This document shows positions 4,462 through 55,450 of a DNA stretch of 64,000 nucleotides, one piece after another. This DNA comes from Promethearchaeota archaeon (GTDB taxonomy: Archaea; Asgardarchaeota; Lokiarchaeia; Sigyniarchaeales; SOKP01). The notes under the pieces were generated by a model. The model saw only the letters and a list, made by a program, of their open reading frames with translations. It was not told the DNA's origin and ran no database searches. The translations under genes were made by a program, and so were the position numbers. Every line of letters begins with the position of its first letter. Within the stretch, counting starts at the first letter, position 1. The stretch is from the NCBI GenBank assembly GCA_048941385.1, contig JBHLNR010000003.1, forward strand, positions 333 through 64,332, written 5' to 3'.

Positions 4462-5769
4462 ATGTCTAAAAAAGAAATAGCTTGGTACGAAAATGATATG
4501 CTTAAAGATAGTTACATTAAGGCTGGATCAAACGCTTTTAGAGGTTACCATGCACCTATTGTAAGTCCTAAAACGACTTTTATTGGCACTAATAGCTTAA
4601 ATGATTTTATAAATCACATTTCAGCTTATTTAACCAATGAGGAAAAACGGGTTTTGATAGTAGTTGATAAAGATCTACTTAAGTTGGGTGAAAGAGTAGC
4701 TAACAGGTTAAAACAACGTAATATTGATTCGAAATTTTATAGTAATGTACTTCCAGATGCGCCAAAATTTACAATACTTGAAGGTGCCCAGCTCTGTGAA
4801 GAATATGATCCAAAAGTAATCTTAGCTATAGGAGGTGGATCTGCAATGGATACTGCAAAACTAATTCTGCTATACTATGAACAACCTGGAATAAATATCA
4901 ACAACATGAGTGCTCCGTATTATGCGGGACTTAGGAAAAAGGCAAAGATTTTAGCAGCAATACCAACTACTTCTGGAACTGGTTCAGAAACAACATTTAT
5001 TGCTGTGGTGACAGACACTGATAGGGATCCGCCTAAGAAAACAGAAGTGGTATTATATGAATTCTGCCCAGATTTCGTTGTTCTCCATCCTGATTTTGTT
5101 AAGACTATGCCACCTTATTTAACCACTGGAACTGGTATGGATGCACTTGCTCACTCAATGGGTTCTTATATGCTAACAATGAGTACTCTATTTACAGATA
5201 TGCATAACTTAAAAGCTATCGAACTGATTTTAAAGTATTTACCTCGTTCTGTAAAGAGAGGGAGTGATATTGAAGCCAGAGAGAAAATGCAAATGGCTGC
5301 CTATATTGCTGGGATAGGATTTGGAAACATATCTGGGGGGATTGAACATTCTTTAGGACATTCATTTGGAGCATTATTCCATGTTCATCATGGGATATGT
5401 GTGGGTTTATTTTTATGCGCTTCAATTGCTTTTCAAGCAAAGGTAACCAATAGGTTTTTTGATCTTGCAAAGTTATTCGAGATTGAATTAAATAACCGAG
5501 ATAGAGAAGGGATTTTAAGAGATTTACTTATTAACTTAAGAGATTTCATGAGAAGGGTTAATTGTCCCTTATCAATTAAAGAATTAGATAATCCTAAAAT
5601 ATCAAAAGAAGAATATTTAGCAAATTTAGAACAAATGGTCGATTTTGCGTTTAATGACTATTGTACATTATCATCTACTCGAAGAATTAATCGTCCACAA
5701 TATAAAAAAATCTTCGAAATAGTCTACGATAACAAATTAGAAGATTTAATGAATTTATTTTATGATTAG
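4462..5769 (+). CDS. Iron-containing (group III) alcohol dehydrogenase
   Basis: GGGSAMDTAK nucleotide-binding motif and the metal-binding His cluster IEHSLGHSFGALFHVHHG. GAGGAG Shine-Dalgarno upstream. Confidence 0.85.
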   Translation: MSKKEIAWYENDMLKDSYIKAGSNAFRGYHAPIVSPKTTFIGTNSLNDFINHISAYLTNEEKRVLIVVDKDLLKLGERVANRLKQRNIDSKFYSNVLPDAPKFTILEGAQLCEEYDPKVILAIGGGSAMDTAKLILLYYEQPGININNMSAPYYAGLRKKAKILAAIPTTSGTGSETTFIAVVTDTDRDPPKKTEVVLYEFCPDFVVLHPDFVKTMPPYLTTGTGMDALAHSMGSYMLTMSTLFTDMHNLKAIELILKYLPRSVKRGSDIEAREKMQMAAYIAGIGFGNISGGIEHSLGHSFGALFHVHHGICVGLFLCASIAFQAKVTNRFFDLAKLFEIELNNRDREGILRDLLINLRDFMRRVNCPLSIKELDNPKISKEEYLANLEQMVDFAFNDYCTLSSTRRINRPQYKKIFEIVYDNKLEDLMNLFYD

Positions 5770-5781
5770 GAGGAATTAAAG

Positions 5782-7650
5782 ATGGATAAAATAAATGGGT
5801 ATAATGGTAAAGTAGCATATATCGATTTAAGTACTTCAAATGTAGATTTAAAAAACCTAGAACTTGAACTTATTGAAGAGTATTTAGGAGGTGCAGGACT
5901 TTCAGCTAAACTTACTTATGATTTACTAGATGATGATGCTTATCAAGTTCTAAAAAACGATCCCTTAGCTAGTGTAAATCCATTGATTTTTTCAACTGGT
6001 CCTCTAACTGGGACTGCTACACCGTCTAGTAGTAGATATTGCGTTACAGCGATTTCACCTCTTACAGGGATATGGGGGGAGGCAACTTCCGGAGGATTTC
6101 TCCCAATTGCTTTAAAAAGGTGTGGGTATGATGCTATTGTAATTACTGGTGAAAGTTCGACTCCTAAATTTATATACATCGACAATGGTAAAATAGAAAT
6201 TAAAGATGGAGATAATCTTTGGGGAAAAAATACTCGGGAAACAATTGAATCAATTAGAGAAAACCTTAATGATAATAAACTTAGGATTGCGTGTATCGGA
6301 AAAGCAGGTGAAAATTTAGTAAAATATGCAGGTATAATTAATGATGAGGGACGAGCAGCAGGTAGATGTGGGCTAGGGGCGTTAATGGGCAAGAAAAAAT
6401 TAAAAGCTCTAGCAATAAAAGGAAACCAGGTAATCGAATATGCTGATAAAGAAGGATTAAGAAACCAAGGAAGGATTTCTCAAGAAAATGTAATGATTCC
6501 TATCGTCTCAAATCTATTTTCTCACTATGGAACATTGCTTTACACTGACATGGGTATGGTTATAGGAGATGTACCCGCTAATTATTTTACTAACACTGAG
6601 TTTATCGCAGAGGATTTAACAGGAAGGGCATTAAAGGAGCAATATGTAGTACTAAAATATGCCTGTTCGGGATGTGTTATTGGTTGTGGGAGAACTACGC
6701 TCTTAGAAATCGACGGGAAAGAGATAGAAGTTGATGGTCCTGAATATGAGACAACAGCCGCTTTCGGACCGCTATGTGGTATCTTTCATTTTAAACCTAT
6801 TCTTGAAGCAAACCATAAATGTAATCTCGCAGGAGTAGATACAATTTCTAGTGGAGTATCAATCGCTTTTCTCATCTATTTGGTTGAGAATAATATTGCC
6901 AAAAATGAAATCGAGAAATATCTAAATGAAATTAGTATTGAAAAAATTCGATGGGGAAACGAAGAAATTGTCTTAAAATTATTAGATCTATTAATCAATA
7001 GAAAAGGAATAGGAGATTTATTAGCTGAAGGGACAAGAATAATGGCTAAAAAGCTAGGGGTTGATCCGGGACTAGCTGCCCATGTAAAAGGCTTAGAAAT
7101 ACCTATGCATGATCCCCGCGCATATTTAGGACAGGCTCTAACTTACATGACGGGTTGTACAGGGGCTAACCACAATAAGGGAGACTTTTATAACATCGAT
7201 GGTGATGCTGCATCTTATGCAAAAATCAGGAAAAAAGATCGATTTACAGTTGATAAAAGGGAAAAAGCCGTAATTGCTTATCAAGATTTAACTAATATTT
7301 ATGATTCAGCAGTGATTTGCAATTTTACACATCTTAATGATGGCGTCTTAGCAAGATTACTAAAATTATCTACTGGAATTCAATCATTTGGAAGTAGTGG
7401 TACTCTATTCAAAATAGGAGAACGCGCTTCAAACCTTAAAAGACTAATTTCATGTAAACTTGGTTGTAAACGAGAGGATGACTACTTACCAAAAATTACT
7501 TCAACCGCTTTAAAGACTGGAGGTTCAGCTGGGATTGCTGTGAATTTAGAGGAAAACTTAAAAGTATATTATGAAAAGCGGGGTTGGGTGTGGGAGACAG
7601 GTTTTCCATCTGAAAAAAAACTGAGGGAGCTCAATATAATAAAATCTTAA
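5782..7650 (+). CDS. aor: Aldehyde:ferredoxin oxidoreductase (tungstopterin AOR family)
   Basis: 622 aa. N-terminal GKVAYIDLS pattern, [4Fe-4S] ligand motif CSGCVIGCG, and EYETTAAFG and DTIS motifs typical of the AOR family. AGGAGG 7 nt upstream, 12 nt after the ADH stop. Confidence 0.9.
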   Translation: MDKINGYNGKVAYIDLSTSNVDLKNLELELIEEYLGGAGLSAKLTYDLLDDDAYQVLKNDPLASVNPLIFSTGPLTGTATPSSSRYCVTAISPLTGIWGEATSGGFLPIALKRCGYDAIVITGESSTPKFIYIDNGKIEIKDGDNLWGKNTRETIESIRENLNDNKLRIACIGKAGENLVKYAGIINDEGRAAGRCGLGALMGKKKLKALAIKGNQVIEYADKEGLRNQGRISQENVMIPIVSNLFSHYGTLLYTDMGMVIGDVPANYFTNTEFIAEDLTGRALKEQYVVLKYACSGCVIGCGRTTLLEIDGKEIEVDGPEYETTAAFGPLCGIFHFKPILEANHKCNLAGVDTISSGVSIAFLIYLVENNIAKNEIEKYLNEISIEKIRWGNEEIVLKLLDLLINRKGIGDLLAEGTRIMAKKLGVDPGLAAHVKGLEIPMHDPRAYLGQALTYMTGCTGANHNKGDFYNIDGDAASYAKIRKKDRFTVDKREKAVIAYQDLTNIYDSAVICNFTHLNDGVLARLLKLSTGIQSFGSSGTLFKIGERASNLKRLISCKLGCKREDDYLPKITSTALKTGGSAGIAVNLEENLKVYYEKRGWVWETGFPSEKKLRELNIIKS

Positions 7651-7786: not shown

Positions 7787-8236
7787 TTGAAAGAACTCTA
7801 TGAATTAGGCATTGTTTTCAGGGGATTTGTACTCGTAAATCATACTTTTAAAGAATTGCCCGTACAAAAAGAACATGGAGTTACTAAAGATCTTAGAGGT
7901 GCGTTTATTTCAGCAATAAACGCTTTCACTGAAACTGCATTTAATAAAAGTTCATTAGAATATTTAGAATCTGGAAATATCTTATTTATTTTTAAGATTG
8001 CTTTAATACAATCTGAGGATAACAATGTCAAAGAATCATTAATTCTATACGGATTAGTAGATAAATCAAAAAAGAAATCAGATAAACTTGTAAATAAATT
8101 CTTCGAAAGAGTGAATCCTATTCTACAATTATTTATTCAAAAATTCAATGGAGCTAATTTTTCAGAGCTGAATCAGTTTGAAGATTTTGAAGAAAAGGTA
8201 GTAGATTTCCTAACTAAAAAACCACAGGAATATTAA
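7787..8236 (+). CDS. Hypothetical protein, longin/roadblock-like alpha-beta fold (by pattern)
   Basis: 149 aa, TTG start. The order is two N-terminal beta-like hydrophobic runs (IVFRGFVLVNHTF), helix LRGAFISAINAFTETAF, strands ILFIFKIALI / LILYGLV, then C-terminal helices. The F-SAI--F helix is shared with the N-terminus of ORF 54692..55450. Confidence 0.5.
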   Translation: MKELYELGIVFRGFVLVNHTFKELPVQKEHGVTKDLRGAFISAINAFTETAFNKSSLEYLESGNILFIFKIALIQSEDNNVKESLILYGLVDKSKKKSDKLVNKFFERVNPILQLFIQKFNGANFSELNQFEDFEEKVVDFLTKKPQEY

Positions 8237-9879
8237 TCTACAAGGTTCCAACCTTTTGGTTTTGCTCGAGAGTATTGTATTTTACCTTGTTCCTTTAATA
8301 TATTTATTTCATTTTCAATCTGGCTAACTGAAAATCCTTTTGCTTTTATATCATTTACAAATTCCGCTTTAGTTGGAACAAGTCCTTTTACTTTCAGGTA
8401 TTCAATAATTTCATTGTTTAATGACCCAGTAGTACTTGTTTTTTGTACGGGAGCTTCCTCTTTTTGAGGTGCTGATAGCACCACACTTAATTTCTCTTTA
8501 TCAGATTTAGAAGGTTCTTCTAATATCATATGCTTTACAGCAACCTTAGACTCCTCTACAGGTGCTTCTTCTATTTTTTCCTCCTTTTCCACCTCTTCTA
8601 GAATCCATACGGGATACATTATTTTTTCATAAACTACGGATTTCTGAGTCTTTAATAATGTTAAATCTTCTAAGATCTCATCTTCAGTATAATTTAATTT
8701 TCTTAATTCACTATCTAAATCTTTCAAGTATCCTTTATTTAACATAATCTCGAAAATGTGCTCTCTTATATTAGTTGGAATTTCTTTAATATTAGCGATT
8801 TCATTAATTACAGACTGCTGTTCAGCAGAATCAACTACTTCTAATTTCTCTTGCTCAGGGATTTCTAATGGTTGTTTAACACCCCATTCAAAATCACTCA
8901 TAATTCTAATTGTGCGATCATATCCACCAAAAATAATATTTTTCTTTTCCTGATCTACTCTATAACAAATATGCTTAATTGAAGTTGATACTTTCGTCTT
9001 CCATTTTAACTCAAAATCAGAAGCACCTATGGTGGGGTTATGAAATACTTTTAAAGACCCATCTGCGCAACCAGCAACGATCTCCTTTGCATTATCACCA
9101 TCAATGTCTTCTACTAACAATGCTAAAGGACGACTCTCCTCAATTTGTATATCTTTAATTGATTCTCCGGTACTATCAAGGACCTTTATAACAGAATCGT
9201 CAGTACTTATTAAGATTTCATTGAAACCATCATTCGTTACATCACCAATCTTAATGTCATTAATTTGAGCATTGAAATTTTTCTGCCAAATAATGTCAGG
9301 AAGCTCGTCTTTAAATCTAATTAACTGAACAATTCCACTCTTAGTTCCAACTATTAACCCATAAATTGGAAGCTTTTCGTTAGGTAACTTCAATGCTCCT
9401 AATGTGCAAGCTGTTACCCAAGAGTCATAATAAAAAATAAAGTCTGGTTCCTTTGAGTTAAGACTCTCAAATATCTTAATGGTTTTGTCTTCACTACCAA
9501 ATATTAAATCTATATTCCCATTACGTGTAAGATCTCCCGCAATGCAACAATTTACACGCTTAGGAGATTTATATCGCATTATTCCAACTAATTTTTTCTT
9601 ATCCGGACTTAATTTTAAAACCATGAAACTTCCATCTCCAGCGCCGACTAAAACTTCATCACATCCATCCCCATCTAGATCAATTGGATAACTACATCGA
9701 CACCAACCATCAAAAACTCTATCATCGATTATATTCATACTTTCATCCATTAAATAAAGAGTTTTATCGTGCCCACCGAATACTAAGAAGTTAATATCTT
9801 GACATTTTAAAACTGAGCATGTTAAAACTGCTTCCGGGCATTCGAACATATAAATAAGCTGAAAACGCTTTCGAATCAT
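8233..9879 (-). CDS. Cytoplasmic 7-bladed FG-GAP-like beta-propeller protein with two C-terminal winged-helix-like domains
   Basis: Seven blade-like repeats in aa 1-335. Four carry D-x-[DN]-x-[DN]-G...E[IV]L[VI]...DG-x-[IV]K[VI]F (DLDGDGCDEVLVGAGDGSFMVL, GDLTRNGNIDLIFGSEDKTIKIF, GDVTNDGFNEILISTDDSVIKVL, EDIDGDNAKEIVAGCADGSLKVF). No signal peptide. Two short helical wHTH-like modules (aa ~360-425 and ~485-548) are separated by an E/K-rich linker. Confidence 0.6.
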   Translation of the reverse strand: MIRKRFQLIYMFECPEAVLTCSVLKCQDINFLVFGGHDKTLYLMDESMNIIDDRVFDGWCRCSYPIDLDGDGCDEVLVGAGDGSFMVLKLSPDKKKLVGIMRYKSPKRVNCCIAGDLTRNGNIDLIFGSEDKTIKIFESLNSKEPDFIFYYDSWVTACTLGALKLPNEKLPIYGLIVGTKSGIVQLIRFKDELPDIIWQKNFNAQINDIKIGDVTNDGFNEILISTDDSVIKVLDSTGESIKDIQIEESRPLALLVEDIDGDNAKEIVAGCADGSLKVFHNPTIGASDFELKWKTKVSTSIKHICYRVDQEKKNIIFGGYDRTIRIMSDFEWGVKQPLEIPEQEKLEVVDSAEQQSVINEIANIKEIPTNIREHIFEIMLNKGYLKDLDSELRKLNYTEDEILEDLTLLKTQKSVVYEKIMYPVWILEEVEKEEKIEEAPVEESKVAVKHMILEEPSKSDKEKLSVVLSAPQKEEAPVQKTSTTGSLNNEIIEYLKVKGLVPTKAEFVNDIKAKGFSVSQIENEINILKEQGKIQYSRAKPKGWNLVD

Positions 9880-10029
9880 GATCTCACAAGAAACCTTTAG
9901 ATTATAGAAATTTTTACAATATCTATAATAAATTTTTCTGTTTATTCATTTAATAATTATCTCAAGGACTATTAAACTGTTAGTCTAAAATAGAAATAGA
10001 AAAAAAAATAAAAAAGAAAATTTATGATT

Positions 10030-12174
10030 TCATAATGCTAATTGCGCATCGGATGGACTATATTCACCTGTACCAGTTATCTCATAAGTAATCTCTAATT
10101 TGTCTCCCACTTCTAATTCTTCAATCTCCCATTTTAAGGTATCTTGACCTACTTCATCCGTAACCTTAGGTTTAATTGAATAGGTTCCATATTCAAATGA
10201 ATCAGGAACTTTATCAAGAAGTACAAGATTATAGAGTTTTGATTCACCGATATTTTCAAGAGTTAAGATAATTCTATAATTGCCAAGGTCTCCAATTGGA
10301 ACAACTTCTTTACTCGTACGGAATTTCCTCCTGATGTGAAGTGCTTCAATTACCGGAACTTCTGGTCTGAATTCTAACTCTCGACTTACAGGATATGTGT
10401 TGGCATGATAAATAATTTCCGATTCAAATGTAGAACCTCGAACAGGATTAATACAGTGAATAGGATATTGGAATTCTAAGGTTGAATCTGGTTTAAACAT
10501 TCCTGTGCTAGTGTCTTTAAGATCTTTAAGGGAAATGGTAAAAACATCCATTTCAAAGCTAATTGCATCCCCTGAAAGTTCTACTTCATCCCCATCCCAA
10601 ATTAATGTAATCTCATCTACTTTAGGAGGTTGGTATTCATCAGTAAAACTCTGTTGAATAACAGTAATTTCATTTAATGGAGCTGAACCGTTATTTGCCA
10701 TTTTAAGGGTTGCAATAACATCTTGAGCTTTATACGTTGGAGTTTCAACCTTGTTATAAGCCATATCTCCTGTGATACTAGCGATTTCTAGTATAACGTC
10801 TGAGATCGAGACTGCGACAGTAACATGATATTGATAATCAGGAACAACTCGAAATTCAAGTTTCTTTCTAAATGTTGGATAATCTTCACTTTCATATTGC
10901 CATTTAACTGAATGCCACTGAGCTCCTGATGGTAACATAGGGACATCATTTGGATCAATATCAACAAATTTAGTACTCTCATCATCTGGACTATAAACAT
11001 CGGCATTGAAAAGTTGAATTATAAATTCAGAAGAATTATCAAAGATTAATTTATTATCCCAAATATTCGGTTCTTCATCTCGTTCAAGGGTATCTATAAA
11101 GAATTTGTTTCGAGTATATGCATCAAATTTTTTAATAGCTAATCCCTCCGCAAACGATGAAGTCGCCTTATAGGTAACATCAATTGTTCCAGTTCTTCTC
11201 CTAGCGATGTCATTTACAGTGATATTACAGGTAAATTTGAGTAAAACAGTATATTCCGGCCTTAATCTGTCAATTTTCCAAATTATTTTATCTCCTTCGA
11301 TTTCAGCATGTCCTTCTGACGTGTCACGAATAATTGGATTTGTAAAATCATCTGGTATTGTCTTAATAACTTCTATATCAGAAACAGGCTTATCAAACTC
11401 ATTTCTTAATGCAATTGCAAATGTTATAGTGTTTTCTCTGTCAATAGAGATTCCAAATGTTTCTAAGTTTGATAATACAGCGGTTCCACCATCTTCCCAA
11501 ACTTCTCCTTCATCATCATCTTCTTCCTCTTCTTCGTCATCCTCAGCTTCAGGGGGAATTGTTGGAGCAACTTTTTTGCTAACTTTACTTGTTTTATCTT
11601 TAAGTTTTAAGAGTTCTCTTTCAATGTCATTGATATTTAAAAAATCATCAGCTTCAGGAAGGGTACTTATAAATTCTTTTACCAGAAACAGATTTTGTAC
11701 ATCTTTTTTAAGTTCAAATTCTTTTGTTTCAACATTATCTGGATATTCTGTACCTAGTTCTCTTATTGATATATCACTTGATTTTAAATTAGTGCTACCA
11801 ATATTATCTAATGCCAAGTCAATATCCCAGAGACGATCAGAAGAACTTGGGTTCTCGATACTAATTTTTCCACCAAAACTAAAAGATTCAACATTCGCGT
11901 CATGGTCTTGTTTGACTTCCACATCCTCAATGATCTTTACAAGTGCTAATAATCCTTCCCGATTTCCATCTTTTAATAAAATACTTCCTTCAAGCTCTCC
12001 TGTATCCTCATCATATGTTTCAATAACAGGTGTTGCTGTATCTCTATCGACTAGCTTTACTTTTCCCTCATCCATATCCGTTCTTTTTAATGCTTCTGCT
12101 ACTAATTCTTCTCCAGCTTCATCTTCATCAAAGCCCATCCTCGTTGGTTTTTTTTTCTTATCTTTTTTTGCCAT
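10030..12174 (-). CDS. Large cytoplasmic protein with repeated CARDB/DUF11-like beta-sandwich modules and a poly-acidic linker
   Basis: 714 aa, no signal peptide (MAKKDKKKKPTRMGFDEDE). Acidic run EAEDDEEEEEDDDEGE. At least four segments with the pattern N-x-G/F...[IV]-x-[IV]-x-x-x-[IL]P-D-x-F ... W-x-I ... L-x-[IF]-x-Y/C (e.g. LENIGESKLYNLVLLDKVPDSFEY...LKWEIEELEVGDKLEITYEI). Confidence 0.5.
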   Translation of the reverse strand: MAKKDKKKKPTRMGFDEDEAGEELVAEALKRTDMDEGKVKLVDRDTATPVIETYDEDTGELEGSILLKDGNREGLLALVKIIEDVEVKQDHDANVESFSFGGKISIENPSSSDRLWDIDLALDNIGSTNLKSSDISIRELGTEYPDNVETKEFELKKDVQNLFLVKEFISTLPEADDFLNINDIERELLKLKDKTSKVSKKVAPTIPPEAEDDEEEEEDDDEGEVWEDGGTAVLSNLETFGISIDRENTITFAIALRNEFDKPVSDIEVIKTIPDDFTNPIIRDTSEGHAEIEGDKIIWKIDRLRPEYTVLLKFTCNITVNDIARRRTGTIDVTYKATSSFAEGLAIKKFDAYTRNKFFIDTLERDEEPNIWDNKLIFDNSSEFIIQLFNADVYSPDDESTKFVDIDPNDVPMLPSGAQWHSVKWQYESEDYPTFRKKLEFRVVPDYQYHVTVAVSISDVILEIASITGDMAYNKVETPTYKAQDVIATLKMANNGSAPLNEITVIQQSFTDEYQPPKVDEITLIWDGDEVELSGDAISFEMDVFTISLKDLKDTSTGMFKPDSTLEFQYPIHCINPVRGSTFESEIIYHANTYPVSRELEFRPEVPVIEALHIRRKFRTSKEVVPIGDLGNYRIILTLENIGESKLYNLVLLDKVPDSFEYGTYSIKPKVTDEVGQDTLKWEIEELEVGDKLEITYEITGTGEYSPSDAQLAL

Positions 12175-12454
12175 TATTCTTTACCAGTTTTTTTTATTTA
12201 GATTGAAATTTTATTTAACAGTTAATAAAAGTTTACCCGATAAAATAAAATCTACTACACTCTTTAAAAAATTTTTCATACTAAAGTAGTAGATTATAAG
12301 TAGAACCACAAGAAGTGTTCTTTTTATTGAGACTTGAAATATTTTTTACCATTTTAATATGAATTCTTAGTAATAAAATCAGAATCAATATCTTTATTAC
12401 CACATAATGAATTATGATTTCTAGAAATTTTTACTACAAAGTAAGCATAAATAA

Positions 12455-13894
12455 CTAAATTTGTAGTAAAACTATAACTATATCGTTTACATTACATCCG
12501 GTTGGACCTGTAATAATCTCAGATTTAGTTAATTTAAAAAAACTATTTGAATCGTTATTTTCAAGATATTTCATTATGTTAATTTTGTCTTTATTAATTT
12601 GATTTAAAATATAATTATCTACTAAAGCACCCATAGCTTGACTATTTCCTTCAATACCATCAAGGTTAGCCCCTAAGATTAAAAACTCATGAGGAAACTC
12701 TCGATCTTTTATATAATTTGAAAAGCTTAAGAGCATTTCTTGATTTCTACCCCCAACACCATTTCCTTTGATTTTTACAGTTAACTCACCTGTACCTATT
12801 AATGCAAGATTGCTGGAGTTATTTTTTTCTGGATTTTTTAATTTCTCAAGAATTGTTTTATACAATATTTTTCCAAAATCTACAGATTCACCTGTAATTT
12901 CATTAGAAAAAGAGATTGTATTGAAACCTTTTGTTTCCAAGAATGAAACAACTCTTTCTACTGCATTTTTTACACTTCCTAATAAATAATTATGAACATT
13001 GTTAAAACATCTATCTCCAGATTTGGGAGTTTCTAGTCTTTTCTTTTTCATTCCATCCCTTACATGGTTTCTAATGGATATAGGGAGTTGTTCATAAAGG
13101 TTATATTTTTCTAAAACTGCAAGGGTATCTTGAAAAGTACTACTATCCGGTACAGTTGGTCCAGAGGCTATAGAATCCAAATTATCTCCCACAACGTCAG
13201 ATATAATTAGAGAAACTAATTTTGCTCCACTGGATGTCCATAATGTCTTCGCAATATTCCCACCTTTTATAACAGATAAATGTTTTCGAATGATATTGAT
13301 TTCGTGTATAGAAGCCCCTGATGCTAAGAGAAGAGAATTTAGTTTTTGTAAATCTTCTAAACTTATTCCTTTTTTAGGTAAAGGTAATAGAGCAGATCCA
13401 CCTCCAGACAGCAGAAATATAATTAAATCCTCCCTTTTTGATTCTTTTATGATTTTTAGCATTTCTTTTGCTCCATCAAATCCACTCTGGTCTGGAATTG
13501 GATGGGAAGCATAATTAAATTTAATAATACTTTTTTTCAGCATTTCAGGGTTTATTGAATCCTTCGGAATGTTGACAAAACCATCATATTCAACGTTCTT
13601 TTTTTTGGTTAATATCTTTTCTAGTGAAAGGGCCATTTCAGCAGTAGCTTTCCCTCCTCCAATAATATAAAGCCTTCTAAAATTATTAAGATCATAATCA
13701 TCGTTCTGAATTGTTAATATATTATTCTGAATTCTAATAGAAGAATTAATTAAATTTTGAGGTTTAACTGCATCAATTGCTCTTTCAAGGGTTTCGAGTG
13801 CAATTTTTCTTAAATATAATTGACTTATTTCCAGATTTTCATTAAGTAGTTCATTTAAATTTTGAATATGGATAGGAGATACACCTTGGTTCAA
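12455..13894 (-). CDS. Glycerate 2-kinase / hydroxypyruvate-reductase-like (DUF4147 + MOFRL family)
   Basis: 479 aa with GGGKATAEMA, LLSGGGSALL and C-terminal GTGELTV...GGRNQE...TGPTGCNVNDI motifs characteristic of MOFRL-family glycerate kinases. Confidence 0.75.
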   Translation of the reverse strand: MNQGVSPIHIQNLNELLNENLEISQLYLRKIALETLERAIDAVKPQNLINSSIRIQNNILTIQNDDYDLNNFRRLYIIGGGKATAEMALSLEKILTKKKNVEYDGFVNIPKDSINPEMLKKSIIKFNYASHPIPDQSGFDGAKEMLKIIKESKREDLIIFLLSGGGSALLPLPKKGISLEDLQKLNSLLLASGASIHEINIIRKHLSVIKGGNIAKTLWTSSGAKLVSLIISDVVGDNLDSIASGPTVPDSSTFQDTLAVLEKYNLYEQLPISIRNHVRDGMKKKRLETPKSGDRCFNNVHNYLLGSVKNAVERVVSFLETKGFNTISFSNEITGESVDFGKILYKTILEKLKNPEKNNSSNLALIGTGELTVKIKGNGVGGRNQEMLLSFSNYIKDREFPHEFLILGANLDGIEGNSQAMGALVDNYILNQINKDKINIMKYLENNDSNSFFKLTKSEIITGPTGCNVNDIVIVLLQI

Positions 13895-16705: not shown

Positions 16706-16796
16706 TATGTTTTTAAATATCTTATTTTACTAATTATTTGCCTTCCTTAATCATAATTTTATGGTTTGTTATTGATCAATAATAAGTTTGCATAGG

Positions 16797-18146
16797 ATGC
16801 TTCGTCAAGTATATGTACTTAAAGAAAATGATGTAATTTATAAACGAGCATATGGAAATGCTCTGAGTAATTCTGAAGTTGAAGATCTGAGTTTTAGGAT
16901 TTTAAAAGAGGTAAAAACAAGCCTTGGGAGAACTTCAGGACATTTTGATTTCATTAAGTATAGAATAGCATATGAAGTTGAGGTTGAAATCAACTTAATT
17001 TTTCTATTTATTACAGGATTGATGGATGATTATTATCGATTGATCAAGCCCCAATTGTTTAACTTTAAGGACCAATTTATAAATCGTCTAGGAGATGATT
17101 TAAAAGGAAAAGACATAAGGAATATAAGTTTTACTGGTATTAACGTAATGCTCGACGAGATGCATAGAAATTTAAAACCAAAAATAGCTGTTGTAGGATT
17201 TGCTGGAGTGGGTAAAACTACTATAAAAAAATTAATAAAAATGGATGAGATTCCTCTTCAACATGTTCCCACTATTACAGGTGAAATCGCTACAATAAAA
17301 ATAGGGAGGCTTTTATTTCGTTTATTTGATTTTGCGGGTCAAGAACAATTTAAATTCCTTTGGAAGGGATTTATAAAGGAAAGTGACGCTGTACTTGTTG
17401 TTACTGATTCTACAATGAAAAATGTTGAAAAAAGCAAATTTTTTATAAACCTCATTAATGAAGAAGTTCCTCATGCACGAGCTGCTTTTATAGCTAATAA
17501 ACAAGACTTAAACAAAGCGATGAGTCCAGAAGAAATAGAAAAAATAACGGGTTTAAAAACATATCCCATGGTTGCAAACCATAAAGAAAACCGGAACAAA
17601 ATGATTCGAGTTATCGCAGATGTGCTGGATATGAGTACCGAAAATTCACCATTACTAGAAGAATTGTTTAATACTACAGATTTATCAGCCGATACCTTAG
17701 TTATACCTGAAGACACTAAAATTATTGAAGAAACACCAATAATAGGAGAAAATGAAGTTCCTCTAAATACCATTCGGTTAGAAAAGATAGAAACTACTAG
17801 CAATGCGAGAGATAAGATTGATCAAGTTATATCAAGTAATATTGAAATTAAACCGATTATGTTTAAAAGTGGGCTTTCAAGCGACGATATCAAATCTCCA
17901 ATTGAAAATGCTTTAGTCCCATCCGATCTATTTGAAGAACTTATTAATGGAAACTCATATACACTAAATGAAAAGCTGAGTATTATTTTTACAGTAATCA
18001 ATTGTGCTTTTCTTACTAAAACTAATCCTGAGGAATACCCCAAATTTGGAAGTTTTTTGAGAAATTTTAAGATGGATGTTTTTAATTCTAAACAATTAAG
18101 GACTATCCGAAAATTCTATTCAAAAATCATTAAACAAGTGACATAG
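16797..18146 (+). CDS. Longin-like N-terminal domain fused to an Arf/Rab-like small GTPase with a C-terminal extension
   Basis: GTPase motifs G1 GFAGVGKTT, G3 DFAGQE, G4 NKQD. The preceding ~125 aa (VYVLKENDVIYKRAYG...IAYEVEVEINLIFLFITG) have a longin/roadblock-like strand-helix pattern. ATG at 16797 is preferred over TTG at 16788. Confidence 0.7.
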   Translation: MLRQVYVLKENDVIYKRAYGNALSNSEVEDLSFRILKEVKTSLGRTSGHFDFIKYRIAYEVEVEINLIFLFITGLMDDYYRLIKPQLFNFKDQFINRLGDDLKGKDIRNISFTGINVMLDEMHRNLKPKIAVVGFAGVGKTTIKKLIKMDEIPLQHVPTITGEIATIKIGRLLFRLFDFAGQEQFKFLWKGFIKESDAVLVVTDSTMKNVEKSKFFINLINEEVPHARAAFIANKQDLNKAMSPEEIEKITGLKTYPMVANHKENRNKMIRVIADVLDMSTENSPLLEELFNTTDLSADTLVIPEDTKIIEETPIIGENEVPLNTIRLEKIETTSNARDKIDQVISSNIEIKPIMFKSGLSSDDIKSPIENALVPSDLFEELINGNSYTLNEKLSIIFTVINCAFLTKTNPEEYPKFGSFLRNFKMDVFNSKQLRTIRKFYSKIIKQVT

Positions 18147-23763: not shown

Positions 23764-26700
23764 ATGACTGCTTCAAAAGAAAAATTGACATCTGGGACAT
23801 TAGAAGAAAGATACAAATTAATATTAGAAAGTCAAAATGATCTCGTTTATATAATCAATCAGAAATTAGAGATTGAATATTGCAATGAACCAGTTTTTAA
23901 ACGAGTTTTAGGGTATACAGAAGAAGATTTAAAGAGAAATAAAATTCTATTTGCAATCCATCCCGAGGACAAAAAAGAAGCCCTTCAAGCTATAAAGGAA
24001 GGAATAAAAAAGAAAGAAGGTGTTGCAACGTTACGTCTAAGAGATAAAAAGGGGGAATACCATTTTCATGAGTTTACGGGAAAATTGTTTACTGATTATG
24101 ATGGAACACAAAAGGCTTTGATTATTGCAAAAGACATTTCTTCACACATTAAATCTGAGATAGGATTAAAAGAATCGGAAGAATTGTATCGCTTAATTTC
24201 AGAAAATTCTAATGATTTGATTAGAATTTTTGATAAGAATTCAACATATCGATATGTTAATGAAGCGACACATCTTAAGCAACTTGGCTATACCCGGGAT
24301 GAATTAATCGGTATGCCTGCAAAAAATATACTTCATCCTGACGAAGAAGATGAATATAATAAAGATTACGAAATTTTAATATCAACAGGAGAAATGAGAA
24401 GAGAAGCAAGAGTGTTGCATAAAGATGGACATTGGGTATGGTTTGATATTTGGGGAAAAGTGATTGATAATACAGAAGAGAATTGGAGAGGTATAATCAT
24501 ATCAAGAAATATTGATGAAAGGAAGAAGGCAGAAGAAAAATTTAAGAAGTTCTTTAAAGGTAGTCCAATTCCAACTTATGCATGGCAAAAAGTCGGGGAA
24601 GATTTTATATTGATTGATTATAATGATGCTGCTGTAAAAATTACCCAGAGTGGTGTTGAGAAATTCATAGGTGTTAAAGCTTCTGAAATGTATAGAACCC
24701 GATCCGAACTTTTAGAAGATATAATGAGATGTTTTGAGGAAAAAGTAGATATCGAGCATGAAATGAAATATATAATGGAAATATCCAAACAAGAAAAAGA
24801 TTTACTTGTAAAATATGTCTTTTTACCTCCAGATTTGGTTTTAGTTCAGACTGAAGATATTACTGACCGGAAAATTGCTGAAGAAAAAATAAAAGAATCA
24901 GAAGAAAAATACAGAACTCTTTCAGAACAATCCTTCCTAGGCATAGCAATTTTACAGGATGATTTTATTCGATATGTAAATAAACAACTTGCTTCTACGT
25001 TTGGATATTCAATTGAAGAAATAATGGCTTGGGGTCAAGGTGGTTTTCTCAATGTAATATATCCTGAGGATAGAATCATGGTTGCTGAACAAGCAACAAA
25101 GAAACAACAAGGAGACTCAGATATTATCAACCAATATCAATTTAGAGGGATAAGGAAAAATGGGGATATCATTTGGTTAGAGGTATTTTCAAAAACTATT
25201 ACTTATAGGGGAAAACCAGCAGATTTTGTTACAATTCATGATATAACCGACGAGAAAATAACTGAACAGAAGATCAAAGAATCTGAAGAAAAATACCGCA
25301 ATTTATTTAACAATGCTCCATTTGCGATAGTCCTTTTCACTATTGAGGGAATCATCTTAGATTGTAATGACAGTACTCAGAAAATCACAGGATATTCTAA
25401 AGATGAGCTTATTGGCCATAATTTTAAAAACTTTAATTTCTATGTTGATCCAACTTCTGCAAATTTAGAAGAAAGAACTGCAAAGACTAGTGCAGGTAAA
25501 ATACCTGAAGTTAGAGAAATTCAATTGTATAAAAAAGAGGGGACTCAATTTTGGGCTAGAACACATATAGAATTTATCTATTTGAGAGGAGAAACTTATA
25601 TTCAAGCAATCCTGCATGATGTTACAGAACAAAAAGAATCAACCATTAGACTTAATGAATCAGAAAGCCGTCTCCAAGAAAGAGTAAACGAGTTAAATTT
25701 TTTGTACGGAATTTCTGAGATAATAGAAAGTCAGAATTTATCATTAGAAGATCTCATAAATGAAGTTGTCATTTTAATCCCTACAGCAATGCAATTTCCA
25801 GATAGAGCGAGGGTTCAAATAAAATTTGATCGACAGGAATTTAAATCTCATGATTTTAGAGCAACTAGGTGGAAATTGGTAAATCATATTACTATTAATG
25901 AGAAACCATTAGATATAGAAATATTCTATTTAGAAGATAAACCATTCCTTCCAGAAGAAGAAAATTTAATTATTGAACTTGGAAAAAGATTAAAAAACTT
26001 CCTTGAAAAGAAGGAATCAGAACAGGAGAGAAGGATTGCTCAAGAAGAGCTGAAGGAATCCTATGAAAAGCTGAAAGAACTTGAAAAAATTATTAATAAT
26101 AGTCCTGGTATAGGGATTCTGTGGAAAAATTCAGAAGGATGGCCTGTGGAATTTGTTTCTGATAATGTAAACCAATGGGGATACACTCCACAAGAATTTT
26201 ATTCTGGAAACGTGATTTATGCTGAAATAATTCATCCTGATGATTTGGAAAGAGTTACGGAAGAAGTGGGTTATTATAGTAATGAAGATATAAATGAATT
26301 CGTTCAAGAATACAGAATCATAACTAAATCGGGCGAAGTAAAATGGTTAGATGACAGAACCTGGATTCGAAGAGATTCAAATGGAAATATTACTCATTTT
26401 CAAGGAGTTGCATTTGATATTACTGATCGGAAAATTGCTGAAGAAGCTTTAAAAGAGTCAGAAAAAAAATTTAAAGAAGCCTATGACCAAGCAAGCTTTT
26501 ATAAAGACCTTTTTACACATGATATTAATAATATCCTTCAAGTTGTAAATTCTTCAGCTGAACTCATTTCTTACCAATTAGGTAGTTCTGAGAAGTCGAA
26601 AGATATCTCGAATATTGCGAATATTATTAAAAAACAAGTAGATCGCGGATCTAAACTAGTTTCTAATGTTAGAACCCTATCTATAATTGAAGATGAGCAA

Positions 26701-27180
26701 TTTTCAACTAAATCTTTAGAGATCTCGAGATACTTAGAGAATTCAATTGATTTTATAGAGAAAACATATGAAGATAGAAATGTAAAAATTACGGTTGATG
26801 GTTTAAATGGAAAATATGAAATTCTTGGGAATGAGCTCATACAAGACGTTTTTGAAAATATATTAATTAATAGTATAAAATACAATGAAAATCCTAATGT
26901 AGAAATTGCGATACGATTATCAAAAATCAAAATAGATGATAAAACTAATTTCAAAATTGAGTTTAGTGATAATGGTATTGGAGTTCCTGATGATAGAAAA
27001 ACAGCGATTTTCTTAAGTGGAAATCGAGAATTTAAGGGTAGGAAAGGAATGGGATTAGGGCTTTCATTGGTGAGTAAGATTTTGAACCTATTTAATGGAA
27101 AGATCTGGGTTGAGGATAAAATTAAAGGTGATTACACTCAAGGGAGCAATTTTATATTAGTTTTACCTGAAGCTAAATAG
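23764..27180 (+). CDS. Cytoplasmic multi-PAS / GAF-like sensor histidine kinase
   Basis: 1138 aa, no TM segments. At least five PAS-like modules are separated by the recurring linker DITDRKIAEE(K/A)IKESEEKYR. H-box FTHDINNILQV. ATPase N/G boxes NSIKYN, DNGIGVP, GMGLGLSLV. No response regulator in the window. Confidence 0.85.
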   Translation: MTASKEKLTSGTLEERYKLILESQNDLVYIINQKLEIEYCNEPVFKRVLGYTEEDLKRNKILFAIHPEDKKEALQAIKEGIKKKEGVATLRLRDKKGEYHFHEFTGKLFTDYDGTQKALIIAKDISSHIKSEIGLKESEELYRLISENSNDLIRIFDKNSTYRYVNEATHLKQLGYTRDELIGMPAKNILHPDEEDEYNKDYEILISTGEMRREARVLHKDGHWVWFDIWGKVIDNTEENWRGIIISRNIDERKKAEEKFKKFFKGSPIPTYAWQKVGEDFILIDYNDAAVKITQSGVEKFIGVKASEMYRTRSELLEDIMRCFEEKVDIEHEMKYIMEISKQEKDLLVKYVFLPPDLVLVQTEDITDRKIAEEKIKESEEKYRTLSEQSFLGIAILQDDFIRYVNKQLASTFGYSIEEIMAWGQGGFLNVIYPEDRIMVAEQATKKQQGDSDIINQYQFRGIRKNGDIIWLEVFSKTITYRGKPADFVTIHDITDEKITEQKIKESEEKYRNLFNNAPFAIVLFTIEGIILDCNDSTQKITGYSKDELIGHNFKNFNFYVDPTSANLEERTAKTSAGKIPEVREIQLYKKEGTQFWARTHIEFIYLRGETYIQAILHDVTEQKESTIRLNESESRLQERVNELNFLYGISEIIESQNLSLEDLINEVVILIPTAMQFPDRARVQIKFDRQEFKSHDFRATRWKLVNHITINEKPLDIEIFYLEDKPFLPEEENLIIELGKRLKNFLEKKESEQERRIAQEELKESYEKLKELEKIINNSPGIGILWKNSEGWPVEFVSDNVNQWGYTPQEFYSGNVIYAEIIHPDDLERVTEEVGYYSNEDINEFVQEYRIITKSGEVKWLDDRTWIRRDSNGNITHFQGVAFDITDRKIAEEALKESEKKFKEAYDQASFYKDLFTHDINNILQVVNSSAELISYQLGSSEKSKDISNIANIIKKQVDRGSKLVSNVRTLSIIEDEQFSTKSLEISRYLENSIDFIEKTYEDRNVKITVDGLNGKYEILGNELIQDVFENILINSIKYNENPNVEIAIRLSKIKIDDKTNFKIEFSDNGIGVPDDRKTAIFLSGNREFKGRKGMGLGLSLVSKILNLFNGKIWVEDKIKGDYTQGSNFILVLPEAK

Positions 27181-47183: not shown

Positions 47184-49526
47184 ATGAAGCCATCTGTTTT
47201 GAAAAAATTGAATTTAATTATTGAAGAAGCCAACGCGTTAAAAGATAAAAACAAATTTCAAAAGGCAATAGGCAAATTTGAACATGCTCTAAATTTCATT
47301 AATATAAAGGTTGATGAGCCTAGTGATAAGAAGATGGAGATTGCAAATATAAGAAATGCAATAAACCAGACTTATTCAGTTGAGATCAATAATATTATCC
47401 AAGAATCAATTCGTCTGACATCTCAAAGGGAATATGACCCTGCTAGAATCAATTTTCAAAATGCCTTAAAAATTTGTGAGAAAATTGATGATGAGGATCT
47501 TAAGGAAGTAGAAAAGCGAGAAATAAAGGAGCTTATTCGGGAAATTGATATACAAAAATTATTAATTAAGGGAATAAAATTAAGGGAAGAAAGGAAGTTT
47601 GATGAATCAATAAATGTATTTAAAGAGGCAATGGCTATTGCTGAGAGTTTTCAAGATTCAGATGGAAAAAAAGATAATATTGCCAAAATTAATGAAGAAA
47701 TTAAAAGAACTTATGAAAATCAATTTAGATATATATTGCATCAAGGGACAGAATTAAAACAATCCGGTCGATTTGAAGAAGCAATCAAATTATTAGAGCA
47801 AGCAAAGAATTATATTGATGTATATTTCCCTTCGGATACTAAAAAAACCGAAGTTGTCAACCTTAAAAATTTATCAAATGAAATCTATTCTAATCAGATT
47901 AAACCGATTGTAGAAAAAGGTAATGATTTATTAGAGCAAGGATCAACTGAGAAAGGCGTTGCTGAATTAAAAAATGCATTAACCATTGCTGAAAAAATGT
48001 ATGATTCAGATTTGAAAAAGCTTGAGATAAGTATTATCGCAGAATTGATAAATCCGATCTACACAAAACGTATTAATCCTATTTTAGATGAAGGTATTAT
48101 AATTACTAAAAAAGACAATTTTAGTGAATCAAATTCGATGATAAATCAAGCTATTGATATATTTGAAAGTGCATTGGATATTGCAAAAACAATGATAGAC
48201 TCTGAAAGAAAGAATATAGAAATAAAGAAAATTACCGATCTAATCAATAAAGCCTGTTTACCAGGAATAAACACAATAAAAGATAAATCCATACAATTAA
48301 TTGGACAACAGAAATACGAAGAAGCAATTAATGAGGTTTATATTGCTTTAAGTCTTGCAAAGCGAATGACGTATCCAGAAGAAGAAAATCTAGAACTTGA
48401 AGAACTAAAAAACTTAATTAATAAAATCTACTCCGTTGAAATAAAAAAGATTATCAATCAAGGAAAAGAACTAGCCGAAGAAAATGAGTTTGAGAAAGCT
48501 ATTGAAGTTTTTAATGAAGCTCTGAACCAAACAAATAAGATGTATCTAACTCAAGAAATGGAAAAACAAGTGAATAATATTAAAAGTCTTATTTATGACG
48601 CTGAAGTGGGACTTCTCATCGGAGAGGGAAAACTAACAGAAGAACAGAAAGCAAAAGAAAAAGAAATTGAGAAACTAAGAAAAAGGTTGGAATATGCTAA
48701 GTCTATAGAGGATGATATACGAAGAGTCGAAGAAATGAACAAAATCAAAAAACTGATTGATAATATTCATTCTGAAGAAATTAAGTTACTGATAGAGCAA
48801 GGCAATCAACTCGCAGGTAAGAAAGCATTTGAAGAAGCTTTTAACTTTTATGAGAAAGCTTTAAAAGTTAATGATATGATGGAAGAACCAGATGTTAAAA
48901 ATAAAGATTTAATCAAGGAGAGTTACAAAAGAGAGCTTATCAATAAAGCTAAAATTGAGATTGAAAATAAGCAGTATGATGTAGCAATCGAAAATGGAAG
49001 AAAAACCGTTGAACTAGATGAAAAATTTGTAGATGGATATTATTACATCAGTCTTGCTTATATTCATAAGAAGAAATTTGATGCTGCAATAGAAAATCTT
49101 CAAAAAGCATTAATCTATGATAAAAATCACATTCAATCTTGGAATCTCACTGGATTAGCATATGAAGCTAAAAAAGATTATGATAGCGCGTTAGAATATC
49201 TTAATAAGGCAATAGAAATTGATCCTAATTATTCCCCAGGATGGTATAATATTGGAAATATATATAAGCAGATAAAGGATTATGAAAGGGCTATTGAGAA
49301 TTACTCAAGAGCAACTGAATTGAATCCTGATTATGCTAAGGCATGGTTTTTTATGGGAACTACATATTTCGACAAAAAAGACTACTATAATGCTATCATA
49401 AATCTAGAGAAAGCGATCAGCTTAGATCCTAATCTTGCTCAAGAAATAAATCCACTAATCAAGGATCTAAAAACTACTGTTAATAAACTTCAAGACGCTC
49501 TTGATTTGTCTTTTATTAATAGATAA
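47184..49526 (+). CDS. Alpha-solenoid protein: about eight ~62-aa helical repeats followed by canonical TPRs
   Basis: 780 aa. Recurrent unit [KR]-[FY]-[ED]EAI--[FL]--AL-IA--M-D-D-K--EI--[IL]--LI--IY---I--II--G--L. The C-terminal ~200 aa have classic TPR signatures (W-L-G-AY----YD-A--Y--KA-E-DPN). Confidence 0.8.
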   Translation: MKPSVLKKLNLIIEEANALKDKNKFQKAIGKFEHALNFINIKVDEPSDKKMEIANIRNAINQTYSVEINNIIQESIRLTSQREYDPARINFQNALKICEKIDDEDLKEVEKREIKELIREIDIQKLLIKGIKLREERKFDESINVFKEAMAIAESFQDSDGKKDNIAKINEEIKRTYENQFRYILHQGTELKQSGRFEEAIKLLEQAKNYIDVYFPSDTKKTEVVNLKNLSNEIYSNQIKPIVEKGNDLLEQGSTEKGVAELKNALTIAEKMYDSDLKKLEISIIAELINPIYTKRINPILDEGIIITKKDNFSESNSMINQAIDIFESALDIAKTMIDSERKNIEIKKITDLINKACLPGINTIKDKSIQLIGQQKYEEAINEVYIALSLAKRMTYPEEENLELEELKNLINKIYSVEIKKIINQGKELAEENEFEKAIEVFNEALNQTNKMYLTQEMEKQVNNIKSLIYDAEVGLLIGEGKLTEEQKAKEKEIEKLRKRLEYAKSIEDDIRRVEEMNKIKKLIDNIHSEEIKLLIEQGNQLAGKKAFEEAFNFYEKALKVNDMMEEPDVKNKDLIKESYKRELINKAKIEIENKQYDVAIENGRKTVELDEKFVDGYYYISLAYIHKKKFDAAIENLQKALIYDKNHIQSWNLTGLAYEAKKDYDSALEYLNKAIEIDPNYSPGWYNIGNIYKQIKDYERAIENYSRATELNPDYAKAWFFMGTTYFDKKDYYNAIINLEKAISLDPNLAQEINPLIKDLKTTVNKLQDALDLSFINR

Positions 49527-54691: not shown

Positions 54692-55450
54692 TTAAATGAT
54701 ATTTATAATTTTATTAGCAATTCGATCTAGATTTACTTCAGCCATCCCGAAAGGTACACTGCTTTCATAAAGCACTACTATTAATAAGGGGTCAAGTTTC
54801 CAGGGAATATCAATTATTTTGGAAACTATCTTTTGACCATTTTCTAATCGGGAATATGTTTCAGGGAGAACTATAGCTCCAACCATAAACCTAATTTCCA
54901 ACTCTTTTAATGAATTTACTAATATTTCATTAGGTAGTGAAGTGTAAATTATATTTCCTTTTGTTGAAAGAAGTGCAGCACCAACGATCTCGTTTTCATA
55001 CATTAATTCTTTAAAAACATTAATCACTTTCTTATAGAAGGTTTTGCTCATATAGATTTCTTCTTCCCCAGTAATGATCGTGTCCACTAATTCATCAAAC
55101 TGCGGTTCTTCAATTTGCTGGTAATCTTTTACTTCAGTTGTATCAGGAAAGAGTTCAAAAAATTCATCTGCTATTCTTGATAATCGCGAACTTACAAAAA
55201 TGATACTAGCACTTGAATCACATAAAATACTAAAAATAAAATCTTCTCGCACTGCGAAAACGAACCTTAACTCACTCATTTCAAGTATTTCAGGTGTTTT
55301 TTTTGAGATTATATTCTCTGAAAATGAAAATATTGCGGAGAAAAATGGTGTAATTAGATTCACTTCAATATTTTCAAAATCATTTGTAAAATTACGATTA
55401 TATATGCATACACCCGTTTTCTTCAGGATAAAAAGCGAGTGAATTTTCAT
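54692..55450 (-). CDS. Two-domain protein: N-terminal longin-like plus C-terminal Roadblock/LC7-like domain
   Basis: 252 aa. N-terminus HSLFILKKTGVCIYNRNF...LITPFFSAIFSFSENI...LRFVFAVREDFIFSIL. C-terminus IVGAALLSTKGNIIYTSLP...LLIVVLYESSVPFGMAEVNLDRIA (roadblock pattern). Confidence 0.55.
   Translation of the reverse strand: MKIHSLFILKKTGVCIYNRNFTNDFENIEVNLITPFFSAIFSFSENIISKKTPEILEMSELRFVFAVREDFIFSILCDSSASIIFVSSRLSRIADEFFELFPDTTEVKDYQQIEEPQFDELVDTIITGEEEIYMSKTFYKKVINVFKELMYENEIVGAALLSTKGNIIYTSLPNEILVNSLKELEIRFMVGAIVLPETYSRLENGQKIVSKIIDIPWKLDPLLIVVLYESSVPFGMAEVNLDRIANKIINII

Follow-up and report, generated by a model that had tools for sequence, protein, structure and literature searches.

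Do three adjacent archaeal genes that appear to encode a longin, a propeller, and a mu-homology domain (MHD) specify one adaptor-like module, or do they simply share a stable region? The question is raised by genes a, b, and c of a Promethearchaeota archaeon (GTDB lineage Archaea; Asgardarchaeota; Lokiarchaeia; Sigyniarchaeales; SOKP01), which lie within a 64,000-nucleotide stretch of contig JBHLNR010000003.1 (GenBank assembly GCA_048941385.1, positions 333 to 64,332 of the forward strand), hereafter the window, with a G+C content of ~31%. A first-pass annotation, made by a model from the sequence, had grouped these genes as a possible scaffold or coat-like module. Overall, the fold assignments came out reasonably secure, the c family was found to carry an MHD that the annotation had missed, and the block proved highly conserved, while joint action of the three proteins is a tentative reading.

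The three open reading frames (ORFs) were all found where the annotation had placed them, with the following layout according to the ORF list:

7787-8236, + strand: gene a, 149 aa, TTG start, predicted stand-alone longin-domain protein
8233-9879, - strand: gene b, 548 aa
9880-10029, - strand: c-b intergenic spacer of 150 nt; the stop codon of c is followed by a run rich in T, and an AT-rich, TATA-like stretch precedes the start of b by ~45-55 nt
10030-12174, - strand: gene c, 714 aa

The sequence also bears out two finer details of that annotation, i.e., the TTAA at 8233-8236 that is common to the stop codons of a and b, and the c-b spacing, which measures exactly 150 nt. The spacer may hold a terminator for c and a promoter for b.

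Strong conservation of all three genes

Close full-length homologs of a, b, and c were found in hundreds of Asgard (Promethearchaeota) metagenome-assembled genomes (MAGs) and metagenome contigs, and the entries for an NCBI MAG labelled Candidatus Hermodarchaeota include proteins identical to these. Among the matches listed, identity to database clusters was 75-96% for a, 61-81% for b, and 65-92% for c, and the lowest identities at genome loci were 52%, 42%, and 56%, respectively (i.e., 52-96% for a across both sets). Because of this strong conservation, we take a, b, and c to be real genes under strong constraint; a and c are even better conserved than the neighboring glycerate kinase gene, indicating strong purifying selection. 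The NCBI labels of MAGs carrying 60-90% identical orthologs are mixed (Hermod-, Hod-, Thor-, Heimdall-, Loki-, and Promethearchaeota), and a MAG labelled Bathyarchaeota (NWF08_00365/00375) has a and c at 81-83% identity, which suggests inconsistent taxonomy or a mis-binned contig. Antisense to c, a 360-aa Ser-rich ORF (11207-12289, + strand) mirrors the acidic and Lys-rich coding sequence of c and is almost certainly not a gene.

A mu-homology domain in protein c

The AlphaFold2 (AF2) model of c (predicted local distance difference test score, pLDDT, 70.5) is nearly all beta, with disordered segments at residues 1-47 and 200-246, and c can be divided as follows:

12127-12174, - strand: c residues 1-16, polybasic N-terminal tail (MAKKDKKKKPTR...), with K4, K7, and K8 nearly invariant; disordered in the AF2 model
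11605-12027, - strand: c residues 50-190, first beta domain, proposed first half of the MHD
11437-11577, - strand: c residues 200-246, disordered poly-acidic insertion (pLDDT 22-30), missing from paralogs
11095-11436, - strand: c residues 247-360, proposed second half of the MHD, which scores as DUF11 too
10033-11082, - strand: c residues 365-714, ~three more beta-sandwich domains, the last ones DUF11/PKD-like

The first-pass annotation had described c as a Lys-rich, internally poly-acidic protein of DUF11-like sandwiches. These features stand: DUF11 was matched in 50 of 50 c orthologs (Pfam), and c itself gave weak matches to TIGR01451 (residues 623-666) and PKD_3 (residues 665-705). A protein of such sandwiches alone is not what emerged, since c also has an MHD. 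PF00928 (Adap_comp_sub, the MHD of adaptor protein (AP) mu subunits) was matched in 9 of the 50 orthologs at E < 0.01, and three of six orthologs scanned singly exceeded the cut-off of 31.6 bits (32.4-34.5 bits, and 37.6 bits with the acidic loop removed), with paralogs of c reaching up to 39.5 bits. In the orthologs, the match aligns c residues ~245-357 to profile positions 123-240; in all, positions ~114-240 of 259 are covered, and a version of c without the acidic loop still gave no match to the first half of the model.

Searches against solved structures pointed the same way. A profile of the MHD region built from c orthologs and Asgard paralogs (profile A4), searched against 177,635 distinct PDB sequences at E ≤ 10, returned four matches only, three to AP-3 mu1 (1.1e-6 to 5.3e-6) and one to AP-1 mu1 (0.009). 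When the AF2 model of c was compared with the PDB by Foldseek, 37 of the top 50 matches were MHDs of AP-2 mu2 or AP-1 mu1, with E-values of 6e-9 to 1e-7, target-normalized template modeling (TM) scores of 0.58-0.69, and alignments of ~290-310 columns (root-mean-square deviation 3.8 for 1h6e_A). Narrower comparisons were uninformative: sequence searches of the PDB with narrow c and a profiles gave no match, hhalign of these family profiles (Neff ~1.6) against AP2 mu (PDB 2bp5_M) gave probabilities <1%, and with the broader A4 only 31 residues aligned to the start of the MHD, without significance. Taken together, it is reasonably secure that c contains an MHD homologous to the C-terminal cargo/partner-binding domain of AP mu subunits.

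In paralogs without the acidic loop, the domain equivalent to c residues 50-190 directly precedes the segment that matches PF00928. Because of these loop-less paralogs, the TM scores, and the ~290-310-column alignments, residues 50-190 would represent the first half of the MHD and the acidic tract an insertion into it. An invariant AYTRNKF...ERDEEP at c residues 352-369 is reminiscent of KYRRNELFLDVLE, which is conserved where the mu2 MHD begins, yet it lies after the PF00928-matching segment; this likeness may be due to chance or be the trace of a second, duplicated unit.

Protein a as a stand-alone longin

The first-pass annotation's assignment of a as longin/roadblock-like drew support from both its predicted topology and its structural matches. 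In the AF2 model (pLDDT 62.7), DSSP assigned strands at residues 6-11, 14-19, 57-62, 65-75, and 82-92 and helices at 37-50, 98-120, and 131-143, i.e., the b-b-a-b-b-b-a-a order of longins, which places a among them on fold. Foldseek matches were uniformly longin or roadblock, with probabilities of ~1 and weak E-values (2e-3 to 1e-1), and included chains of SEA, GATOR1, and KICSTOR-GATOR1 (Npr2/NPRL2), Sec22b, and LAMTOR, as well as, from Lokiarchaea, Rag-like GTPases and a Roadblock-Longin protein. The assignment of a as a stand-alone longin domain is reasonably secure.

Sequence-level kinship was faint. None of the Pfam longin families (Longin, Clat_adaptor_s, etc.) matched a or 31 homologs, a itself drew no sequence match from Pfam, NCBIfam, or the PDB, and a PDB search with a more diverse a profile also returned nothing relevant; hhalign of a against the Asgard Clat_adaptor_s-like candidates that appear in the lists of Eme et al. 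gave weak, local similarity (E 0.006-0.01, probability 4-6%). Thus, a shares its secondary-structure order and weak, consistent fold matches with longin regulators and adaptor small chains (sigma-adaptin, Sec22b, NPRL2, LAMTOR/roadblock, and the Asgard Roadblock-Longin protein 8yqg), but differs from them in having no Pfam longin match, in standing alone, and in being unusually conserved. Its F11-R12-G13-F14 hairpin, at the b1-b2 turn, and a D35-L-R-G-x-F motif are invariant. In GAP-type longins, i.e., those of GTPase-activating proteins (FLCN, NPRL2, SMCR8), a GP motif before strand 2, beside the arginine finger, is the defining feature (PMC12290439). As the b1-b2 turn of a reads F-R-G-F and the GP motif is absent, we rejected a GAP-longin reading of a.

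Elsewhere in the window, two adjoining ORFs (54692-55450, - strand, 252 aa, and 55584-56432, - strand, 282 aa) are faintly similar to a (tblastn E 0.009 and 1.1, respectively); the former has no Pfam match and the latter a weak GNAT match. A longin-like paralog of a at 54692-56432 is possible.

Protein b as a propeller with repeated C-terminal modules

For b, the following parts were distinguished:

8845-9879, - strand: b residues 1-345, seven-blade FG-GAP-type propeller of the ITFG2/BBS2/BBS7 class, with four conserved DxDxDG loops
8590-8784, - strand: b residues 366-430, first ~65-aa helical module, ending Y-E-K-x-x-Y-P-V-W
8236-8433, - strand: b residues 483-548, second ~65-aa module, ending Y-S-R-x-K-P-K-G-W, possibly a winged helix

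The seven blades and four Ca-binding-like loops reported by the first-pass annotation are both present: six G-x-x-[DS]-[GK]-x-h-x-h-h blade strands were found by regular expression and a seventh as STDDSVIKVL at residues 225-234, and the four DxDxDG-type loops are essentially invariant among 47 homologs. Above threshold, b matched Beta-prop_BBS7 (PF23743, 64.8 bits), Beta-prop_CGLA (48.0 bits), BBS2_Mid (PF14783, 41.8 bits), and FG-GAP_3 (PF13517, 38.8 bits), the Pfam cut-off being 27 for both PF23743 and PF14783; the score for Itfg2 (PF15907) was 25.9 bits, just under the cut-off of 27. Searched against the PDB, a profile of the 47 sequences had as its best solved-structure matches ITFG2 of KICSTOR (4.4e-9), BBS7 (0.008), and BBS2 (0.05). 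It is therefore reasonably secure that b belongs with ITFG2 and BBS2/7 in one class of FG-GAP-type seven-blade propellers. Like b, these proteins are cytoplasmic seven-blade propellers with DxDxDG-type loops, and they serve as scaffold subunits of KICSTOR (ITFG2) and the BBSome (BBS2/BBS7).

These matches denote a class rather than orthology. A profile search of 1.84 billion representative proteins gave 2,406 relatives of b, of which the top ~10-15 clusters are full-length or near-full-length orthologs; the next tier consists of 430-850-aa propeller proteins with the same Pfam set and without BBS-type C-terminal domains, and the tier after that of 1,300-1,650-aa proteins with two such propellers and STAND/AAA NTPase domains. 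Because the same BBS/ITFG2 models score as well or better on STAND-NTPase proteins, and also match the propeller paralogs, we rejected b as a specific BBS or ITFG2 ortholog. The GAE, platform, and helical domains of BBS proteins are missing from b, which carries small helical modules, present as repeats, in their place.

Repeat alignment showed the C-terminal third of b to hold two divergent, homologous copies of a ~65-aa module ending Y-[SE]-[RK]-x-x-P-x-[GV]-W. The first copy (366-430) had no significant family match. Winged-helix matches of the module were all sub-threshold (z-alpha 0.0024, MCM_C 0.013, and TBPIP in homologs; TFE 0.12), the sole match of the window's own module being MCM5_C at 0.054; no ESCRT-II family, the likeness suggested by the first-pass annotation, matched it, and a module profile searched against PDB and Pfam returned only designed-repeat artefacts and sub-threshold winged-helix matches. 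Judged by sequence, the module is possibly a winged helix. Among distant b relatives, three (P0377, P0396, and P0398) carry three to five tandem ~65-aa "...YSRxxPRGY" modules with Pro/Lys-rich linkers between them, and a fourth (P0371) has a 488-aa coiled-coil N-terminal extension.

Conservation of the block across Asgard genomes

A scan with the b profile, covering one genome per GTDB species, identified 68 Promethearchaeota loci and one weak Chloroflexi match. Neighbors were then counted by tblastn, with loci having sufficient flank as denominators:

c, upstream of b: present at 63/63 loci
gk (MOFRL glycerate kinase), upstream of c: present at 58/58 loci
a, downstream of b and convergent: present at 63/65 loci
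AOR, beyond a in the window: present at 8/60 loci
ADH, beyond a in the window: present at 7/54 loci
SBP, beyond a in the window: present at 0/47 loci

The first-pass annotation had named synteny across Asgard genomes as a test of its proposal, and the trio passed it, with c at all 63 loci and a at 63 of 65, down to a b identity of 42%. Linkage of the block spans genomes with b identities of 42-81%, and a closed 3.3-Mb genome shows the same block order. The stop codons of a and b abut in 32 of 61 loci and lie ≤~13 nt apart in most others; the c-b spacer has a median length of 148 nt, with a TATA-like motif in just 20 of 61 loci. The sole ample-flank locus without a downstream of b (L062, JAGXNU010000035.1, ~5100-5900) has an unrelated 272-aa Cys-rich ORF instead.

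Upstream of c in the window, two neighbors are relevant:

12455-13894, - strand: gk, MOFRL/DUF4147 glycerate kinase, the conserved upstream neighbor (by Pfam annotation in related loci)
16788-18146, + strand: Arf-family GTPase, 452 aa (PF00025, 76 bits, residues 122-262), a recurrent but not universal neighbor

The gene upstream of gk is lpd in 33 loci (33/56), Metallophos in 13, and an Arf-family GTPase in 8. Homologs of this GTPase lie directly beside the gk-c-b-a block, upstream of gk, in at least 8 of 54 loci, and at locus L074 too. The N-terminal extension of the GTPase, ~115 aa long, shows a b-b-a-b-b pattern, and its tail comprises ~190 aa; by eye, residues 1-115 look longin-like.

Cellular location of the three proteins

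Since FG-GAP and DUF11 both match Pfam families here, and integrin alpha legs are also among the Foldseek matches of c, one may ask whether a, b, and c are ordinary secreted or cell-surface proteins, i.e., an FG-GAP propeller with DUF11 adhesin-like sandwiches. A Kyte-Doolittle hydropathy scan, which is cruder than SignalP, revealed no signal-peptide-like h-region or transmembrane segment in any of the three: maximal 19-residue hydropathy was 1.2-1.6, and the segments concerned hold charged residues. This agrees with the first-pass annotation, which had placed b and c in the cytoplasm for want of a signal peptide. Other features also speak against export: b opens with an invariant propeller strand that includes acidic residues, c has a polybasic tail at its start and, further on, a long acidic intrinsically disordered region, b has 11 Cys and helical C-terminal modules, and the integrin matches of c are low-TM multi-domain alignments (TM just 0.14-0.22). 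We thus rejected the surface-protein reading on the hydropathy scan, and consider it essentially excluded.

The annotation had further regarded cytoplasmic FG-GAP propellers as unusual in prokaryotes, a premise that is now weakened, as after the archaeal propeller paralogs the next relatives of b are large STAND/AAA NTPase proteins. With both kinds of protein among the relatives of b, cytoplasmic FG-GAP-type propellers are probably not rare in prokaryotes.

Relation to known adaptor systems

Supplementary section 4.3.1 and Table S3 of Eme et al. 2023 (Nature 618:992; PMC10307638) already place the c family among candidate eukaryotic signature proteins (ESPs) with Adap_comp_sub, the clear orthologs of c in that table including Lokiarchaeales_Bin_204 WJIS01000289_3 and AMARA_7. 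These parts of the study report domain presence alone, without analysis of the neighborhoods of these domains, and state that mu C-terminal and sigma-like domains were not clearly combined in any one protein (PMC10307638). The examined part of Table S3 did not contain signature peptides of a or b. A 2025 study described Asgard archaea as having sporadic coat parts only, and literature searches combining Asgard with BBSome, ITFG2, or mu homology domain turned up no account of either the cluster or a BBS/ITFG2-like protein in Asgard archaea. Hence, with the c family already flagged as an ESP candidate, what is new is its conserved place in a set of three genes, alongside a longin and a propeller of the BBS/ITFG2 class, and the block glycerate kinase->c->b-><-a appears to be undescribed so far.

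Compared with the mu subunits of AP-1/2/3 and other MHD proteins (delta-COP, stonins, muniscins), c shares the MHD by profile and predicted fold and is likewise cytoplasmic, but its MHD is interrupted by an acidic insertion of ~47 residues, and ~350 further residues of beta-sandwiches come after it. The AF2 model of c contains no longin domain, so that c is not a whole mu-adaptin of the AP/COPI-F/TSET kind. The longin-plus-MHD make-up of mu-adaptin is echoed by the presence of longin a and MHD protein c in one block; there, in contrast to mu-adaptin, the two domains are on separate, convergent genes with b between them.

Do the three proteins act together?

We consider it possible, at somewhat less than an even chance, that the three proteins make up, or work for, a single cytoplasmic module resembling an adaptor or scaffold, a reading drawn from synteny only. 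Of the scaffold or coat-like module in the first-pass annotation, the longin, propeller, and beta-sandwich folds, the cytoplasmic location, and the synteny hold, and its coat flavor is strengthened by the MHD of c, while the joint function stays conjectural. In such a module, the three proteins would act together as a soluble, peripherally membrane-associated assembly: c would recognize peptides or partners through its MHD and attach electrostatically through its basic tail, b would provide a multivalent protein-protein platform, and a would offer a longin surface, a type through which eukaryotic longins bind one another and link up with small GTPases, the putative longin-Arf GTPase often encoded nearby being a candidate partner. 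Sigma-adaptins have the longin fold, as does the N-terminal half of mu-adaptins. A far more specific version, which we regard as improbable, is a primordial adaptor or coat in which c corresponds to the mu C-terminal domain, a to the sigma/mu-N longin, and b to a propeller platform, recruited by the basic tail of c and the neighboring longin-Arf GTPase; this would be a living archaeal relative of an AP/COPI/TSET- or BBSome-type ancestor, with mu still split in two genes.

Several observations weigh against a joint module. A run of five or more T lies within 70 nt of the c stop in 61 of 61 loci, which suggests that c has its own terminator and that c and b are separate transcripts, and a, being convergent, cannot be co-transcribed with either. 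The metabolic gene gk (58/58) is linked as tightly as the trio itself, lpd and Metallophos recur too, and the region may simply be syntenically stable. At 52 metagenome loci of a paralogous MHD gene, no a- or b-like ORF was found within 8 kb and the neighbors were unrelated; no b-c or b-a fusion was seen among distant b relatives, whose extensions were coiled-coil or extra modules only; and no gene for an adaptin-type solenoid (Adaptin_N) was found within ~10 kb in five genomes. On the side of the folds, the window's own c has no PF00928 match at E ≤ 1, the sequence matches span the second half of the MHD only, the AF2 models of c and a are of moderate confidence (pLDDT 70.5 and 62.7), and b shows no specific BBS kinship, the BBS/ITFG2 models also matching STAND-NTPase propellers. 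Finally, physical association, membrane binding, and GTPase coupling of the three proteins are properties that we infer. The main alternative is accordingly that a, b, and c are functionally unrelated neighbors in a stable region (Metallophos ... lpd - gk - c - b - a) of one Asgard order, which we deem rather unlikely and still a serious contender: it fits gk at 58 of 58 loci, lpd at 33 of 56 with Metallophos or an Arf-family GTPase as next neighbor in others, the seemingly separate transcripts of c and b, the convergent orientation of a, and the other neighbors of the paralogous MHD gene. Yet synteny ends right past a (AOR 8/60, SBP 0/47), the c-b-a order is kept down to 42% b identity, a and b keep their tail-to-tail abutment, and the fold classes of the three proteins co-operate in eukaryotic adaptor and GTPase-regulator complexes.

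Two other functions can be envisioned for the trio. A GATOR1/KICSTOR-like module regulating small GTPases, with a as GAP or guanine nucleotide exchange factor subunit or as platform for a Rag- or Arf-like GTPase, b as scaffold, and c as accessory, would account for KICSTOR ITFG2 being the best solved relative of b (4.4e-9), for the SEA, KICSTOR-GATOR1, and GATOR1 chains and the Loki Rag-like GTPase structures that top the Foldseek matches of a, for the invariant Arg12 in its b1-b2 hairpin, and for the Arf-family GTPase gene close by in some genomes. We nonetheless judge it improbable: no KICSTOR or GATOR1 component is known to have an MHD, the weak Foldseek E-values of a do not separate longin subfamilies, and the Itfg2 score of b (25.9) is below the cut-off of 27, with the same models matching unrelated propellers. 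In addition, a lacks the GP motif of GAP-type longins (PMC12290439). Less probable still, b could bind nucleic acids through repeated winged helices, with c as a chaperone-like partner, in chromatin or RNA biology rather than at membranes. The sub-threshold matches of the b module are indeed to nucleic-acid-binding winged-helix families (z-alpha, the C-terminal winged helix of MCM, TBPIP, and TFE), its copy number varies from 1 to 5 among b relatives, as in multivalent binders, and c has polybasic and polyacidic tracts; against this, every winged-helix match is insignificant, a nucleic-acid role is not known for MHD and longin folds, and DNA- or RNA-processing genes are not among the conserved neighbors.

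Other genes in the window

Two further genes were noted: a 780-aa TPR protein (47184-49526, + strand) with borderline TTC21/IFT139-type ARM-TPR matches (ARM_TT21_C 35.5 bits against a cut-off of 35), and a 1138-aa multi-PAS histidine kinase (23764-27180, + strand) with at least five PAS domains and HATPase_c.

Implications for the origin of adaptors

The origin of vesicle adaptors and coats is an open problem of eukaryogenesis, and Asgard homologs of AP subunits have so far been scattered, unlinked domains. The block described here is a defined, highly conserved three-gene unit that brings together an MHD protein, a longin, and a BBS/ITFG2-class propeller, often near a putative longin-Arf GTPase, and its presence in >60 related genomes makes it a concrete, testable candidate for an archaeal forerunner of adaptor complexes. 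If a, b, and c do not assemble, the block would serve as a warning that ESP domain matches and synteny over-predict machinery. If they do assemble, adaptor-like complexes would be older than eukaryotes, and mu-adaptin would have arisen from a gene fusion.

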